Shown here piece after piece: positions 31,704 to 56,357 of a stretch of 64,000 nt of DNA. The notes beneath the pieces were generated by a model that saw nothing but the letters and a program-made list of their open reading frames with translations, made no database searches and had not been told where the DNA came from. The stretch spans positions 32,001 to 96,000 of the IMG/VR virus record IMGVR_UViG_2974799246_000001. One strand, written 5' to 3'. Positions within the stretch are counted from its first letter, which is position 1. Every line of letters starts with the position of its first letter. A program made the translations under genes and the position numbers. The DNA is from a virus. Its lineage: Duplodnaviria > Caudoviricetes.

Positions 31704-32447
31704 TTAGAAGAACTGACTGTCACAACCATCAAGGCTACAGCGTAACGCTTGATATGCAGTGGCACGTTCTTCCGTTAGATTGATATACTTATCGTCAATA
31801 TTGTACTTCACTCTAACAGGCACGTCGTACCCATCGAGCAGGCCGTGTCGCTTATAAGCATTCAGGCGTAGCACAGGTGAACTGACCTTAGCATGTTCCA
31901 TGATGTTCAGGTCAATCTTGTCGGCGTAAATGAATGGACGCTCTCGCTTACACATGATGTAATCAATCTCATGCAAATTAAAGAGTGTGAAATTCATATA
32001 GCCAATAATGAACTCCGCAATCAGCCTGAATGAATCAAACATATCAGGCCTAAATTGTTGTGTGAGAATATGATCAACGTACGGTCTGATCTCGGTACGC
32101 ATCTCATACCAACTCTCACAGAACAATGCAGGGAAGTCTTCAGGGTGATGGGCCATAAGGCCCAACACTTCTTTCTCTGTATCTGCAAAGGAACTTAAAA
32201 TGTCTGAGGCATCGTCAGACGCCTCGACACCACGACCGGTCGAAATAAAACGACGCTCAATGTCTCTCAACCAAGATTCCGAAGCAGATAGGTATTGGAG
32301 CAGTGTTTCTCTCGCGGCAGCCGAGAACTCATGCCTGTCGGAGTCAAGAACCTCACCGAGCATGAAGGCTTTCGCTTTGTAGAAATCAATATAGCGCTCG
32401 GCGGTAAATCGTCGAAACCCTATGTTATTCCTCAAATAGCCCATCAT
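31704..32447 (-). CDS. hypothetical helical protein
   Basis: 247-aa ORF, ATGA-coupled to the upstream membrane protein. Confidence 0.8.
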   Translation of the reverse strand: MMGYLRNNIGFRRFTAERYIDFYKAKAFMLGEVLDSDRHEFSAAARETLLQYLSASESWLRDIERRFISTGRGVEASDDASDILSSFADTEKEVLGLMAHHPEDFPALFCESWYEMRTEIRPYVDHILTQQFRPDMFDSFRLIAEFIIGYMNFTLFNLHEIDYIMCKRERPFIYADKIDLNIMEHAKVSSPVLRLNAYKRHGLLDGYDVPVRVKYNIDDKYINLTEERATAYQALRCSLDGCDSQFF

Positions 32448-52481: not shown

Positions 52482-52904
52482 TTACTGGGACCTCATGGCA
52501 AACGTAACGGATTCTTTCGATTCGAGCTTAGGACAGCGCCACGTAACGATACACACGTAGGTCTGTTCGTATTGCTCGCTCATTGTACACGCTGTCTGCA
52601 CGTTGGTCACATCATTCGTAAGACCATTAGCTGGGTCTTCGAGCGCAAGGCGCATGTACGTTGCAATCCAGTCGGCTGTAGTCTGGTCGAAAGGTTCAAA
52701 TAGGTATTGATACACGTCAGCACCAAACGACTCACGCCATTTGCGAGACTTTTTGCGAGTACCAATGACCATTAAAATCTTCTGGACAATGCTGTCCATG
52801 TTCTGCACGTTATCGCGCGGTTCAAGTTGAATCCACGCATTGATATCACAATAGACTCGCTCGCTGATAGGAACGTCTATTAGTCTGACTCCGATTCCTG
52901 CCAT
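52482..52904 (-). CDS. baseplate wedge protein, gp25-like
   Basis: SI.Q.I..V.GT.K.SR.....FG.D...YLFEP. Confidence 0.85.
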   Translation of the reverse strand: MAGIGVRLIDVPISERVYCDINAWIQLEPRDNVQNMDSIVQKILMVIGTRKKSRKWRESFGADVYQYLFEPFDQTTADWIATYMRLALEDPANGLTNDVTNVQTACTMSEQYEQTYVCIVTWRCPKLESKESVTFAMRSQ

Positions 52905-53194
52905 TAGCCAAATCTCACGTTAGAGCTACCGTTAGAAGCTGTGTCACCACAACTGTTTCCATCACCAGCACGTTGAGCGGGCTTGCCGTTAACACGCACA
53001 CTGGAGCTTGATGTTGCTTTACCAACATGCGGAGGTTTCTTAGGCTTCCAGTGTGGTTTATAGGCGTCACCGCTGCGAACGCTTCCCTTGCCGTTGACAA
53101 GCACATTCGTTGATGCCTGTGCTGGGACGACAGGGAAATAACCGCTGTGACCTGTAGACAGATCTGCGCCAAGTCGAATAGCTTTCTGACCCAT
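52904..53194 (-). CDS. PAAR-repeat spike tip protein (gp5.4-like)
   Basis: GH...P....S.NV.VNGK...R.GD...H...VNGKPAQR.GD..CG. Confidence 0.9.
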   Translation of the reverse strand: MGQKAIRLGADLSTGHSGYFPVVPAQASTNVLVNGKGSVRSGDAYKPHWKPKKPPHVGKATSSSSVRVNGKPAQRAGDGNSCGDTASNGSSNVRFG

Positions 53195-53217
53195 GATTAT
53201 TCTCCTCTGTTAGACAC

Positions 53218-53223
53218 AAATTA
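53218..53223 (-). promoter_or_regulatory. putative late promoter motif TAATTT
   Basis: GCTAATTT 23 nt upstream of the PAAR ATG, right after a terminator. Confidence 0.6.
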
Positions 53224-53243
53224 GCTTGTTAGGCCGCAGAAAC

Positions 53244-53270
53244 AAAAACGGGCAGCCTCATGGCCACCCA
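53244..53270 (-). terminator. intrinsic terminator closing the putative ncRNA
   Basis: Minus strand GGGTGGCC-ATGA-GGCTGCCC-G-TTTTT. Confidence 0.8.
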
Positions 53271-53521
53271 GTTTCTGTGCTTGGATTTGTGTCGCCCATT
53301 CCCTCACACCCGAAGCGAGTGCCCGACGGCTTTAGCCGATGAGCCGGAATGAATGTCCGAGAGTGACGATACACCTGGTATCGACAGCATGTGACTCTCG
53401 GGCCATGATAGCAATAGACCAAGCATCGCTATTGCCACCAGCGACACTAAGAACAAAAGCATGTTTCGCTCCTCGTGTCTTACTTTAAATAACTACGTTT
53501 GATCAACTGGTACTTTGTTCT

Positions 53522-53549
53522 GCTCGTCGCCCAACATCACTTGAGTATC
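53522..53549. repeat. 28-bp direct repeat, copy 1 (GCTCGTCGCCCAACATCACTTGAGTATC)
   Basis: Exact match to 53911-53938. Confidence 0.95.
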
Positions 53550-53910
53550 AGAACGTTTCTCTGTCTTTACCGCCTACGTTGCGGTTATACCGCGCACGAC
53601 ACTCACATATCAAGGGCACTCGGCGGAAAAGGTAAGTTCCGAATGTCCTAACAACATGAGTGAAGCGAAGGAGGTCCCGTATCGGTGATCTGCAGGGGTT
53701 CACGCACTTTTAACATTCGCTTCTTTGTGCATTAAATCTTTCGTGGACTCGAATGCCCTGCTAATCATTCCACTAAGATATTTCACACCCTATTGTGAAC
53801 GGGTCAAGCTATGGCAGCACGTCAGCACGGCAGGCAGCGGACACACTCCATTAAGCATTGTTAAGGGCAATGCTCAACAGGCTGTGAACAGCTTGGTCGG
53901 AATAGGTTTC

Positions 53911-53938
53911 GCTCGTCGCCCAACATCACTTGAGTATC
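53911..53938. repeat. 28-bp direct repeat, copy 2
   Basis: Exact match to 53522-53549. Confidence 0.95.
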
Positions 53939-54508
53939 TCGACCTAAACTTTTACTCTCCACACGACTACAAGGAAGAATCGCGTTTCTGTGACCTGCGG
54001 ATGTTTATCACTCTCAGACTCTTGAGCCACTATCTGGAAGCTAACACGTTGAGTCGTCCGCTGGATGACGTGTTAGCTCTCCTCTCCTCGTCGTGCGAAG
54101 GCCAGAGTGGTAGCTGATGGATTGTCATGAAGTCCTGACAGGAGTCATCGCTTCCCAATGCACACAGGGTGAAAGCCTATGCACATCAGGCAGCGTCTGC
54201 TGCGATACTGCTATCCCCTTGAGAGTGGCCATAGCGTTGAGTTTGCGCTTCGCCAGTCTACGTGCCTGGAAGGTATCTGCCGTGCCTATGTCTGCATTCA
54301 GCATGGTTCCTTTGCTGGGCCTTTTGGGCGTCAGCGACAGAGCAGATATTCATCACGTGGGTGCCGGGGTTGTCCTCACGATTACAGAGCGAACTCAAAC
54401 CGGCTGGAGGCCCGTATGCTCAGGAATGCACATACGAGTTTACCAGAAGAACGGCCCCGCTATGGTAGCGTTCTTCCGAGACATACTGATATTACTATCT
54501 GCAATTTT

Positions 54509-54520
54509 TATTTACAGATT
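54509..54520 (-). promoter_or_regulatory. putative phage promoter motif AATCTGTAAATA pointing into the non-coding interval
   Basis: Exact reverse complement of the 1918/10863 motif; another copy at 54788-54799. Confidence 0.55.
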
Positions 54521-54596
54521 TTTCTTAACCTTCGCCCCAACCACAAGAAGCAGGTTTACCGTCACCGTAACCGATTTTAAACAGCATAGTTAGTCC

Positions 54597-56357
54597 TTAG
54601 AACGCTTTACGTTCGATGTTGGAGTAGTACGTGTCATATGGTTCGCTATACAGCTCAGGGCCGCGCTGCGCACGAATGGTCACGTAACCAGTGTGTCGGT
54701 TGAACGCGATGATTTCGACTGTAGGCTGTTTCGGCTTGATGGTCGAATAAATCGGAGCGTTCATGGTTGGTTCGTCTGTCTGAATCTTATTTACAGATTG
54801 CAGAGCAGCACCAGACAGCGTAGGCAGATTGAATCTGATTTCCGCACGTTTCTGGCCGAACGCGATTTTGATTACACCAGCAGGAAGCTCAACGCCGTTC
54901 TGTTTCAGATACGCACCAATGCGACGAGCGATACCAGTCAACTGATCGCGTGTGCGAGGGTCGAATGTACCTTCGAAGCTGATTGCTTCTGCTGGCTGGC
55001 GCACGGACAGATGCAGACCTGTGTTGAAATAGCCTTCGGTCAGCAGGCGCAGCACTTCCTTCACGACTTCTTTCGTGTTGGATTTGATAGCAGCGATTTT
55101 GAGTTCAGGCACGTCAACCTTAATCGGGTCACGCAGTTCGGTCTGGTTGTCCATGTAGCCGAGTGATACGTGTTTCGCTTTGGTGTACGTGTGCTGCAAC
55201 ACACCAGTAGCGCGAATCAATACAGAGCCAGACTTCGATTGATCATACAGTTCGTCGCTGGTGGTTGTGCTAAACAGGTAATAGTCTGTAGGCACTGCCA
55301 TACGATTAACCGCTTCAACTGCTTTCGTCTGTACTTCTTTTACAGTTTTACCGAAGACAACACGACTACGGTTAGGCTGTGCTGCCGAGACAGGGAAGAA
55401 GGCGCCGTATACAACCTGCACGTTCTTCTGAATAGGCTTGGAAGAGTTTACCTTGATACCGCCTTGCAGCGGAGGTAGCTTCACGCCCACCAGCTTACCG
55501 TTAACGATAGCTTTGTTTGCTACAACAGGCTTGAGGCCAGACAGCAGTTTCTGCAACTCAGCGCCATCAAGAATCTTCTCAAGCGGAACAGCAAGGTTCT
55601 GCGGCAGATAGTGTTTCTTGCGGAACGAGTAGATAACTGTGTCTTTCTTGATCTGCAAAGGCGTAGCCATGTTGCGACCAATCTGACCTACAGGCTGGAA
55701 CGTGTTCTTCTTGTCATCCGCAATGGTACCGAATGCTTTCGTGAACTCAGACTGTCCGATGATGTTAGCCACACGCTGGTGACCACGAACGATAAACACG
55801 ATCTTCGGTTCGTCTTTCAGGCGCAGTTCGTAACGGTCACGGTTCAGATAAACCATGCTGTACTTATCGCCTTTCTCCAGCTCAAGGTCATACTCATCGT
55901 TGGCGTCATCAACCACGACTTTCTTACCTTGATACGTTGCGTACTGACGAGCAGCAGACTCGGAGGCAATCTCCATAGCCTTACCAGTATTCGACAGCGC
56001 AACAGCAAAGTCAGTTACAGCAGGCATCAGATCAACAGACGATGCAACCGCGTAGCTGTTACGGCGTTCACCGAGATGCAGATGCACGGCACTTGAAGCA
56101 GACATGAATACAGTGTTACCTGTGTCTTCATGCTTACCTGCAAAGTTCATACCGCTAATGCGTTCGATGATGTTGGCGCTTAACGCAGGAAACGCGATAT
56201 CGCTACCAGCAGTGAAGTCAAAAATCTCACCGTGACGCCATGCGTATGCCACGTTGTTCGAGCTAAGACCGACAAACGCATCGCCGATCTGCTTAACAGT
56301 CATCGGCATGATACTCAAGTCACGAATGACCGAGTTTTGCTTTTGAATAAGATTCAT
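54597..56357 (-). CDS. hypothetical protein (possibly virion)
   Basis: 586-aa ORF. Confidence 0.85.
   Translation of the reverse strand: MNLIQKQNSVIRDLSIMPMTVKQIGDAFVGLSSNNVAYAWRHGEIFDFTAGSDIAFPALSANIIERISGMNFAGKHEDTGNTVFMSASSAVHLHLGERRNSYAVASSVDLMPAVTDFAVALSNTGKAMEIASESAARQYATYQGKKVVVDDANDEYDLELEKGDKYSMVYLNRDRYELRLKDEPKIVFIVRGHQRVANIIGQSEFTKAFGTIADDKKNTFQPVGQIGRNMATPLQIKKDTVIYSFRKKHYLPQNLAVPLEKILDGAELQKLLSGLKPVVANKAIVNGKLVGVKLPPLQGGIKVNSSKPIQKNVQVVYGAFFPVSAAQPNRSRVVFGKTVKEVQTKAVEAVNRMAVPTDYYLFSTTTSDELYDQSKSGSVLIRATGVLQHTYTKAKHVSLGYMDNQTELRDPIKVDVPELKIAAIKSNTKEVVKEVLRLLTEGYFNTGLHLSVRQPAEAISFEGTFDPRTRDQLTGIARRIGAYLKQNGVELPAGVIKIAFGQKRAEIRFNLPTLSGAALQSVNKIQTDEPTMNAPIYSTIKPKQPTVEIIAFNRHTGYVTIRAQRGPELYSEPYDTYYSNIERKAF

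Follow-up and report, generated by a model that had tools for sequence, protein, structure and literature searches.

A conserved folded RNA with an embedded membrane-peptide reading frame, predicted from comparison of Erwinia and Dickeya jumbo phage genomes

We analysed a 64,000-nucleotide (nt) stretch of viral DNA (the window; positions 32,001 to 96,000 of the IMG/VR record IMGVR_UViG_2974799246_000001), which is part of the 265-kilobase (kb) record of an Erwinia jumbo phage. Our subject is an interval of about 1.26 kb that lies, on the minus strand, between a gene for a protein of 586 amino acids (aa) and a PAAR-type spike gene (Table 1), and that is 98.6-98.9% identical between the window record and the Erwinia phages pEa_SNUABM_28, 16 and 18 (Alexandravirus). 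The G+C content at this unit is 51%, against 49.6% for the genome. A first reading of the window, made from the sequence alone and called here the sequence-only reading, had proposed that the interval encodes a giant structured RNA instead of protein. Here, comparison between related genomes shows a conserved, folded minus-strand RNA with at least 40 predicted helices and, embedded within it, a conserved open reading frame (ORF) for a small peptide.

An interval of 1.1-1.4 kb is present at the equivalent place in every related genome examined. The carriers are 11 distinct Alexandravirus sequences (Dickeya phage AD1 included), Y3 (Sasquatchvirus), the SNUABM_34 group and five metagenomic lineages, namely UViG 3300013825 (UViG13825 below; its sequence is divided over two overlapping contigs), JACCDR010962302 (JACCDR below) and contigs from ERZ15185841, ERZ23499452 and DRR494324. 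Across Alexandravirus, identity to the window is 72-88% in the non-coding body and 77-88% in the flanking protein genes. The RNA is confined to a clade of Erwinia/Dickeya jumbo phages. A search of IMG/VR with the pattern GCAGATCACCGATNNG was too unspecific, with at least 119 chance matches, and one match of a better pattern (L034) was also due to chance, in coding DNA of high G+C content.

The evidence for the fold comes from covariation. In a 14-sequence MAFFT alignment, the RNAalifold consensus contains 252 pairs in 42 helices, with 95.9% of the consensus cells paired (86.6±0.3 in shuffles) and double-sided changes at 111 of the 252 pairs (59.1±4.1 in shuffles). For all five pairing measures, 0 of 500 shuffles reached the observed value, and sliding the partner by 1-3 columns left 21-33 compensated pairs and 35-42% paired. 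An 18-sequence set gave a similar picture, 139 of its 236 consensus pairs being compensated. The alignments are sequence-based and the consensus was scored on the sequences from which it came, which the slid and shuffled controls address only in part. The strand is also clear from the pairs: the consensus energy is -203.7 kcal/mol for the minus strand versus -119.5 kcal/mol for the plus strand, and the minus-strand helices contain 459 G-U cells versus 33 A-C cells. Thus, the RNA is the minus strand, as a plus-strand reading would be full of A-C mismatches. In the regions that the alignment does not resolve (P1, for example), every lineage folds into hairpins whose stems are unrelated in sequence.

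These results allow the structural claims of the sequence-only reading to be judged. All eight helices that it listed are present, and seven of them are kept in the relatives with compensatory changes, both in the 3' domain (53289-95/53441-47, 53297-302/53346-51, 53357-64/53394-401 with its inner stem, and 53411-17/53429-35) and in the body (53854-60/53868-74, 54039-49/54068-78 and 54446-53/54469-76). The remaining helix, GAAGCGAA/UUCGCUUC (53662-69/53716-23), shows no compensatory change and fails in Y3, SNUABM_34, UViG13825 and JACCDR; if 53659-53667 is paired with 53595-53603 instead, 4 pairs are compensated. The interval had been described as packed with helices, which is right for the comparison between genomes, whereas single-sequence folding is unexceptional except at 53244-53480. 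The main proposal, a large structured minus-strand RNA in its own transcription unit, gains support from the covariation and the strand-specific G-U pairs, and the boundaries of the unit had been placed correctly, at the motif AATCTGTAAATA (minus strand, 54509-54520, with a further copy at 54788-54799) and at a terminator hairpin with its U-tract. The suspicion that the RNA belongs to no known family also stood. The Rfam 15 covariance models, which include GOLLD, ROOL, OLE, HEARO, raiA, group I/II introns, RNase P, transfer-messenger RNA (tmRNA), 6S and riboswitches, gave no match in the whole window at the gathering threshold, and at E<=10 the only match within 53100-54700 was a chance one to the C/D-box RNA sR17 (15.7 bits versus 36 required, E=1). 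ARAGORN found 0 transfer RNA (tRNA) or tmRNA genes in the window, and we came across no account of this RNA when we searched the literature for these phages and for large phage RNAs.

The unit, at about 53240-54502 on the minus strand, appears to be self-contained, since it starts at a promoter motif and ends at an intrinsic terminator, and no internal copies of either were found inside it in the window or in close relatives. Allowing up to one mismatch, AATCTGTAAATA occurs 6 times in the window versus 0.18 expected, all 6 copies being oriented with the local genes, and 26 times in the 265-kb genome, nearly always 17-60 nt 5' of start codons. Written AAnCTGTAAATA genome-wide (window sites 1918, 5891, 6473, 10863, 54520 and 54799), the motif precedes genes for DNA polymerase A, a DnaG-type primase, a clamp-loader subunit, a D12 adenine (Dam) methylase and a phosphoesterase. 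It resembles the -10 element of T4 late promoters, TATAAATA, and is found here ahead of replication genes. Transcription would start near 54502, a few bases 3' of the motif. The PAAR gene is preceded by a different conserved motif, AAGCTAATTTG (53217-53226, minus strand), unlike the CTGTAAATA class of the RNA unit, and AAGCTAATTTG also precedes at least one predicted head-protein gene. Because of this difference in class, the RNA is probably made with the replication (early or middle) genes and not with the adjoining structural genes. At the other end, a terminator scan found a 9-base-pair (bp) G+C-rich hairpin followed by a U-tract (53270-53249, minus strand), which is the sole minus-strand terminator-like site in the interval. 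In the consensus this terminator helix (helix 41) has 13 bp, is 100% paired with alternation of G-U and G-C, and is kept even in the Dickeya phages JA11 and JA29.

From its 5' end, the RNA runs from the promoter motif through an invariant single-stranded leader, the variable hairpins P1 and P2, domain I and domain II to a hairpin with a UGCCCUUAACA loop, domain IV, the second copy of a duplicated module, an A/U-rich variable linker (53480-53516) 5' of the ORF domain, and the 3' domain (53244-53480). Domain I contains an invariant GCCUCCAGC junction, P3 (54363-54404), a long bent arm (54260-54358) and a hairpin at 54222-54259, and the single-stranded blocks flanking its helices are invariant in 14-18 sequences. 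The long-range helix that closes domain II (helix 11) is unproven because it is nearly invariant, although it is 98.5% paired. The 24-nt core of the module occurs exactly twice in the 265-kb genome, within a full direct repeat of about 33 nt, and its 3-bp stem covaries (CUC/GAG, CCC/GGG, CCA/UGG and CCU/AGG). A candidate pseudoknot between the module loop UGUUGGGC and CGCCCAA/GCCCAGCA (54313-54330) was also considered. Its first site is not conserved, and at the second the apparent compensation in SNUABM_34 is equally explained by a local hairpin GCUG...CAGC with 4 compensated pairs, so that we lean against it. In domain IV, ACCUCCUU (53668-53675) is predicted to be single-stranded and GAUCACC (53684-53690) lies at the 5' edge, its ACC taking part in the closing helix; both motifs are invariant in 16 of 17 lineages, Y3 having neither. 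The lineage from ERZ23499452 (L181) lacks exactly 53893-54123 (231 nt), with which hairpin C, the AACAUCCGC element and module copy 1 are gone while the rest is kept. It is a natural domain-deletion variant and speaks for modular domains in the RNA.

Table 1. Features of the RNA unit and its neighbours, 5' to 3' along the minus strand (window coordinates).
Feature	Position	Strand	Observations
586-aa gene	54597-56357	-	one flank of the RNA unit; KMPT-N is its only recognisable domain (Pfam)
Promoter-type motif AATCTGTAAATA	54509-54520	-	invariant at this spot in all homologs; followed by invariant leader ...UUGCAGAUAGUAAUAUC
Whole RNA, ~1.26 kb	53240-54502	-	predicted start to end of terminator U-tract; syntenic 1.1-1.4 kb unit in relatives
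P1 hairpin	54441-54480	-	variable sequence, conserved apical loop (..UAGCGGG); folds alone in 15/15 lineages, stems unrelated
P2 hairpin	54412-54437	-	8/8 pairs compensated
Domain I	54216-54410	-	most conserved core; helices 4-10, 21 pairs with double-sided changes
Domain II	53888-54214	-	closed by predicted long-range helix AUAGC (54210-54214) / GCUGU (53888-53892)
Hairpin B (CUGAUG...CAUUGG)	54155-54189	-	invariant base, covarying tip; 12 bp, 4-5 compensated; weak Yoloswag counterpart
Hairpin C	54038-54079	-	invariant inner element CAUCCAGCGGACGACUCAA; helix 17, 10/10 outer pairs compensated
Module copy 1, own closing stem	53902-53947	-	module CUC-AAGUGAUGUUGGGCGAC-GAG at 53912-53935; stem 7-8 compensated pairs
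Long hairpin, conserved UGCCCUUAACA loop	53842-53886	-	16 bp, 9 compensated; loop kept in Dickeya phages JA11, JA29
Domain IV	53569-53686	-	closing helix ACCG.UACG/CGUA.GGCGGU encloses hairpins; helices 29-31, 10 compensated pairs
Module copy 2, different closing stem	53517-53554	-	closing stem 5/6 pairs compensated
Start-site hairpin	53443-53479	-	GACAC/GUGUC encloses Shine-Dalgarno GAGGAG (53469-53474) and AUG (53460-53462)
Small ORF, 52 aa	53304-53462	-	N-terminal membrane helix MLLFLVSLVAIAMLGLLL, ~30-aa tail ending HSLRV; conserved, coding signature
Coding-region hairpin GCAAUAG/CUAUUGC	53407-53439	-	10 bp, 6 compensated
Variable-length hairpin CCGAGAGU/ACUCUCGG with inner stem	53357-53401	-	compensated: 5/7 outer, 4/4 inner pairs
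Three-way junction, CAUUCC/GGAAUG closing two hairpins	53298-53350	-	10 compensated pairs (helices 38-40); recognisable in Yoloswag
GCGACAC, alternative partner of GUGUCGC (53441-53447)	53289-53295	-	mutually exclusive with start-site GACAC/GUGUC
Intrinsic terminator	53244-53275	-	G+C-rich hairpin and U-tract; 45 nt 5' of PAAR gene start
PAAR-type spike gene	52904-53194	-	other flank of the RNA unit; 3' of terminator

Most of the interval behaves as non-coding. Variable sites fall on the three codon phases as 196/203/197, with no periodicity, and no ORF of at least 60 aa within the interval is common to the relatives. The plus-strand ORFs 53725-54117 (130 aa) and 54117-54593 (158 aa) are specific to their genome group, as they are not conserved in relatives 72-88% identical, and they have no Pfam or PHROG match. 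Annotations of 12 related genomes list no coding sequence (CDS) in the interval, or short inconsistent ones. The sequence-only reading had considered the interval to be without a credible gene, which is not wholly right, as it overlooked a conserved 52-aa minus-strand ORF that overlaps what it called a multibranch domain. A scan of both strands found no other ORF kept in every lineage. This one is open and in frame in 17 of 17 complete lineages, at 47-57 aa, despite indels of 3 and 15 nt, and it starts six bases 3' of the Shine-Dalgarno (SD) sequence. Synonymous changes make up 29-32% of the codon differences in its frame, where there are no stops, versus 11-28% in the other frames, which have many stops in 3 of 4 comparisons. 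The hydrophobic helix, MLLFLVSLVAIAMLGLLL in the window, differs elsewhere by conservative replacements only. The peptide is predicted to be single-pass, N-out/C-in, with a His/Arg/Ser tail; it has no Pfam or PHROG match, and its sole database relatives are two clusters from the same phage group. SNU3 and SNUABM_34 have no good SD and keep the whole RNA. Because the 3' ~220 nt encode a conserved membrane peptide, the unit is probably a dual-function RNA and not a purely non-coding one.

The peptide ORF lies within covarying structure. When the 3' part of 15 lineages was folded in isolation, the SD was predicted to be unpaired with a probability of 0.11-0.51 in 14 of them, and the AUG lies in a loop in many lineages. 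The start-site stem changes from GACAC/GUGUC to GACAU/AUGUC in UViG13825 and to GGCAU/AUGUC in Y3. The strand GUGUCGC can pair with either GACAC or GCGACAC, each alternative having one compensated position. For the latter, a complementary CGACA core is found in all lineages but UViG13825, where the alignment is ambiguous, and the compensated position is a U-A in SNU3. In the coding-region hairpin, the GCUUGG loop (53419-53424) could pair with CCAAGC at 53279-53284. This pairing has no covariation and one mismatch, in L181, but both strands are near-invariant, third codon positions included, which suggests a tertiary contact. The variable-length hairpin is 15 nt shorter in six lineages with the reading frame preserved, and the stop codon of the ORF lies in the second hairpin of the three-way junction, where UGA and UAA alternate together with the pairing partner.

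Parts of the unit can be followed into more distant phages. Yoloswag, pEa_SNUABM_5, JA11 and JA29 encode homologs of the 586-aa protein that are 42-50% identical to that of the window, and in these four phages CTGTAAATA lies directly 3' of the homolog gene and is followed by 600-1000 nt without a convincing gene. Profile searches and inspection recovered the terminator, hairpin B, the AGUGNNNAACAUCCGCAG element, the UGCCCUUAACA loop and the three-way junction. Related modules occur twice each in Yoloswag and JA29, while SNUABM_5 has one in the alignment and a related one in an nhmmer match. Peptide homologs are found in Yoloswag (gp109, MLVFFWMLVVVCLLG...AHVRGMWERRA), SNUABM_5 and JA11. The parts are thus old and separable. 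In Yoloswag (L166:5902-6340) and JA11 (L168:5590-6085), the small-peptide unit has its own CTGTAAATA-type promoter, and about 200-250 nt of further sequence precede the conserved terminator; the structured part may therefore follow the ORF in these two phages.

Several observations concern the neighbourhood of the unit. The AlphaFold model of the 586-aa protein is good (predicted local distance difference test, pLDDT, 82). In the window phage and its near-identical relatives, a 76-nt insertion follows the stop codon of the 586-aa gene and precedes the RNA promoter. This insertion, which is missing from most other lineages examined, holds a 20-codon ORF, MLFKIGYGDGKPASCGWGEG (54525-54587, minus strand). 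The divergent UViG 3300013825 has an 8-codon ORF, MYIGYGEG, at the equivalent spot (L028:4759-4810), and its GEG-stop abuts the promoter, as with the 20-codon ORF. The 3' end of the 586-aa gene contains the second exact AATCTGTAAATA copy, 23 nt 5' of an in-frame Met, and a start at this Met would give the C-terminal 55 residues of the protein as a separate product (54597-54764). On the other side, a different ORF (MCRSTDW...) begins after the RNA terminator in pEa_SNUABM_3 (L027) and in the JACCDR contig (L164), replacing the PAAR start. The motif AAGCTAATTTG is a candidate second promoter class, for structural genes (genome positions 5368, 119591 and 170367). The cumulative GC skew of the genome has its maximum at about 57.9 kb and its minimum at 191,685, less than 100 nt from the primase-gene promoter copy at 191,615.

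With a non-coding body of about 1.0 kb, 42 helices, 111 compensated pairs and no codon periodicity, the RNA belongs descriptively to the large ornate structured RNAs. It matches no described RNA family and would be among the largest structured phage RNAs known. GOLLD and ROOL, which form multimeric cages (PMC12286853), are likewise very large, many-helix, phage-borne stand-alone units with conserved junctions between covarying stems. However, they measure about 800 and 580 nt, respectively, against about 1.26 kb here, and their Rfam models do not match this RNA in sequence or structure. While they are often found in phages and prophages, the present RNA belongs to lytic jumbo phages of Enterobacterales, encodes a conserved peptide and carries a duplicated module. 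The OLE RNA has been suggested to form a membrane-tethered ribonucleoprotein with the membrane protein OapA (PMC3413148). OLE, too, is large and structured and is linked genetically to a small membrane protein, although there a neighbouring gene encodes the protein and here the peptide is encoded inside the RNA, and host and lifestyle differ. We found no homology to OLE (by its Rfam model) or to OapA.

Other structured RNAs combine regulation with a short peptide, as RNAIII (hld) of Staphylococcus and SgrS/SgrT do. The RNA described here comes from a phage and is 2-5 times larger than these, no base-pairing targets are known for it, and its 3' ORF is heavily structured. The hok/sok-type messenger RNAs (mRNAs) share with it a hydrophobic peptide of about 50 aa and, as predicted here, an occluded SD and mutually exclusive 5'/3' pairings around the start region, but the phage RNA has a structured 5' extension of about 1 kb and its peptide matches no family. 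The peptide has 47-57 aa and, in all lineages, a hydrophobic helix at its N-terminus, and is within the size and character of type I toxins (less than 60 aa, hydrophobic). We found no conserved antisense promoter over the start region: the sole plus-strand sigma-70-like site there (53381-53409) lies in a segment deleted in several lineages, and 2 sigma-70-like sites were found versus 4.2 expected in shuffles. The phi29 pRNA is another structured RNA encoded by a phage, one that acts in structure or assembly and not as a message; yet it has 174 nt and serves the packaging motor, whereas the only link of our RNA to the virion is its adjacency to baseplate genes, its promoter class being that of replication genes.

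Taken together, we consider it probable that the locus specifies one large folded RNA of about 1.26 kb, in which a scaffold body is joined to a structure-gated peptide mRNA and, possibly, to a membrane tether. A single transcript would start from the CTGTAAATA replication-class promoter and stop at the terminator just 5' of the PAAR/baseplate genes. Its non-coding body of about 1.0 kb would be the folded scaffold, and the two identical 24-nt hairpin modules on different stems, together with the invariant single-stranded junctions, may serve as docking sites for a phage or host partner. The 3' domain would be an mRNA gated by structure, with the SD held in a local hairpin and GUGUCGC pairing either upstream, with GACAC of the start-site hairpin, or downstream, with GCGACAC of the coding-region domain, so that refolding would decide the timing of peptide synthesis. 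It is tempting to speculate that the peptide holds the RNA at the inner membrane, much as proposed for OapA and OLE. A bolder version, which we regard as doubtful, makes it a giant phage RNA of a new class, larger than every other ornate RNA apart from ribosomal RNA (rRNA), that would form a defined particle or multimer anchored at the inner membrane by its own peptide, would be made with the replication genes, and would organise or protect a step of infection.

Some of our own results weigh against the combined scaffold-and-peptide reading. The dinucleotide-shuffle z-scores of single minus-strand sequences are only -1.4, -1.7 and -0.5 for the three 5' segments, and most of the long-range helices, the GCUUGG/CCAAGC contact and the GUGUCGC switch are near-invariant, with 0-1 compensatory changes. 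The discrete transcript, its ends, its status as one molecule and the translation of the ORF are predictions from the sequence, and the scaffold and membrane-tether roles are proposed by analogy only. Foldseek gave no match for the 586-aa protein in the PDB at E<=0.001, and a partner protein was not identified in this way. Next to the gene for its most distant homolog (31% identity), the RNA region was not found. Finally, the Yoloswag peptide unit has its own CTGTAAATA promoter, and protein genes lie between it and the upstream RNA; therefore, the two parts can work apart.

This separation bears on two other explanations. It is conceivable, although in our view unlikely, that the unit is simply the mRNA of the membrane peptide, the preceding ~1 kb being a giant cis-acting leader that delays or gates translation of a hok- or holin-like membrane-damaging product and does nothing in trans. 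Among the elements of the unit, the peptide ORF alone is recognisably common to the most distant relatives, its SD is predicted to be occluded, the alternative pairing between 5', central and 3' parts is like the fold-back control of type I toxin mRNAs, and the only strong folding z-score (-4.5, for 53244-53480) falls in the 3' domain. However, known translational gates need far less than a 1-kb leader in which more than 30 helices covary, modules are duplicated and junctions are invariant. In Yoloswag the peptide has a promoter directly 5' of it and the structured region still lies 3' of the first promoter, SNU3 and SNUABM_34 keep the whole RNA with no good SD, and the conserved antisense promoter expected of such a system was not found. 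The same Yoloswag and JA11 arrangements, in which the part order is changed and a second promoter is present, would also suit two or three independent RNAs, an option named by the sequence-only reading, that one unit yields directly or by processing (a 5' core, a central RNA bearing modules and a 3' mRNA for the peptide), as would the domain-sized natural deletion in L181 and the A/U-rich variable linker before the ORF domain. We hold this to be quite unlikely, since neither in the window nor in its close relatives did we find a promoter motif or terminator inside the unit, and a predicted helix, 54210-14/53888-92, ties the parts together, though it is unproven.

The remaining alternatives turn on what surrounds the unit or on short motifs within it. 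Given that the terminator is just 45 nt 5' of the PAAR start, and that RNAalifold pairs the invariant CUCC (54406-54409) with the PAAR SD GGAG (53202-53205), one could imagine a leader or antitermination element of the PAAR/baseplate operon, controlling terminator read-through or pairing with the PAAR ribosome-binding site (RBS). But this pairing is invariant and so untestable by covariation, the PAAR gene and at least one predicted head-protein gene have a conserved AAGCTAATTTG of their own, the terminator is both strong and conserved, and a different gene lies 3' of it in SNU3 and JACCDR, all of which makes such a role very improbable. Scarcely more than conceivable is a structured origin primer forming an R-loop, like ColE1 RNA II or the T4 origin transcripts: the promoter class is common to DNA polymerase, primase and clamp-loader genes and the body is non-coding, yet the cumulative GC skew has its turning points near 57.9 and 191.7 kb in the genome and not at 85-86 kb, there is no A+T-rich unwinding element at the G+C content given above, and neither an intrinsic terminator nor an embedded peptide ORF is expected of a primer. 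The 3' end of 16S rRNA reads ...GAUCACCUCCUUA, and GAUCACC...ACCUCCUU (53668-53690, minus strand) resembles it. The RNA might then act as a 16S 3'-end mimic or anti-SD sponge, in which ACCUCCUU, GAUCACC and a second CCUCC (54406-54410) titrate RBSs or factors recognising the 16S 3' end. We give this just as little credence, because the near-invariance of the motifs and the predicted single-stranded state of ACCUCCUU are offset by the absence of both motifs from Y3, by the lack of any small-subunit rRNA model match even at E<=10, and by the fact that the likeness was spotted post hoc. Lastly, ordinary protein-coding DNA, either as the 130- and 158-aa plus-strand ORFs, one of which is annotated in near-identical records, or as unrecognised genes, is effectively refuted by the lack of conservation at 72-88% identity, of codon periodicity and of Pfam or PHROG matches, by the absent or inconsistent CDS annotation of the 12 related genomes, and by the 459 A-C mismatches that a plus-strand reading of the covarying helices would contain.

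Large ornate RNAs such as GOLLD, ROOL and OLE are seldom found, and what they do has long been an open question, while recent cryo-electron microscopy (cryo-EM) has revealed that such RNAs build unexpected RNA-only assemblies. The RNA reported here is longer than any of these three, and its covariation is unusually dense for just 14-18 sequences. The annotation of about 40 deposited genomes, which list nothing or inconsistent hypothetical proteins at the RNA locus, is also corrected. Moreover, its carriers include cultivable phages, namely the Erwinia amylovora phages Alexandra, Y3 and the pEa_SNUABM series and the Dickeya phage AD1, with a tractable host; therefore, deletion, probing, pull-down and cryo-EM are directly feasible. 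In these phages, the membrane-peptide ORF and the duplicated module provide concrete handles on the mechanism.

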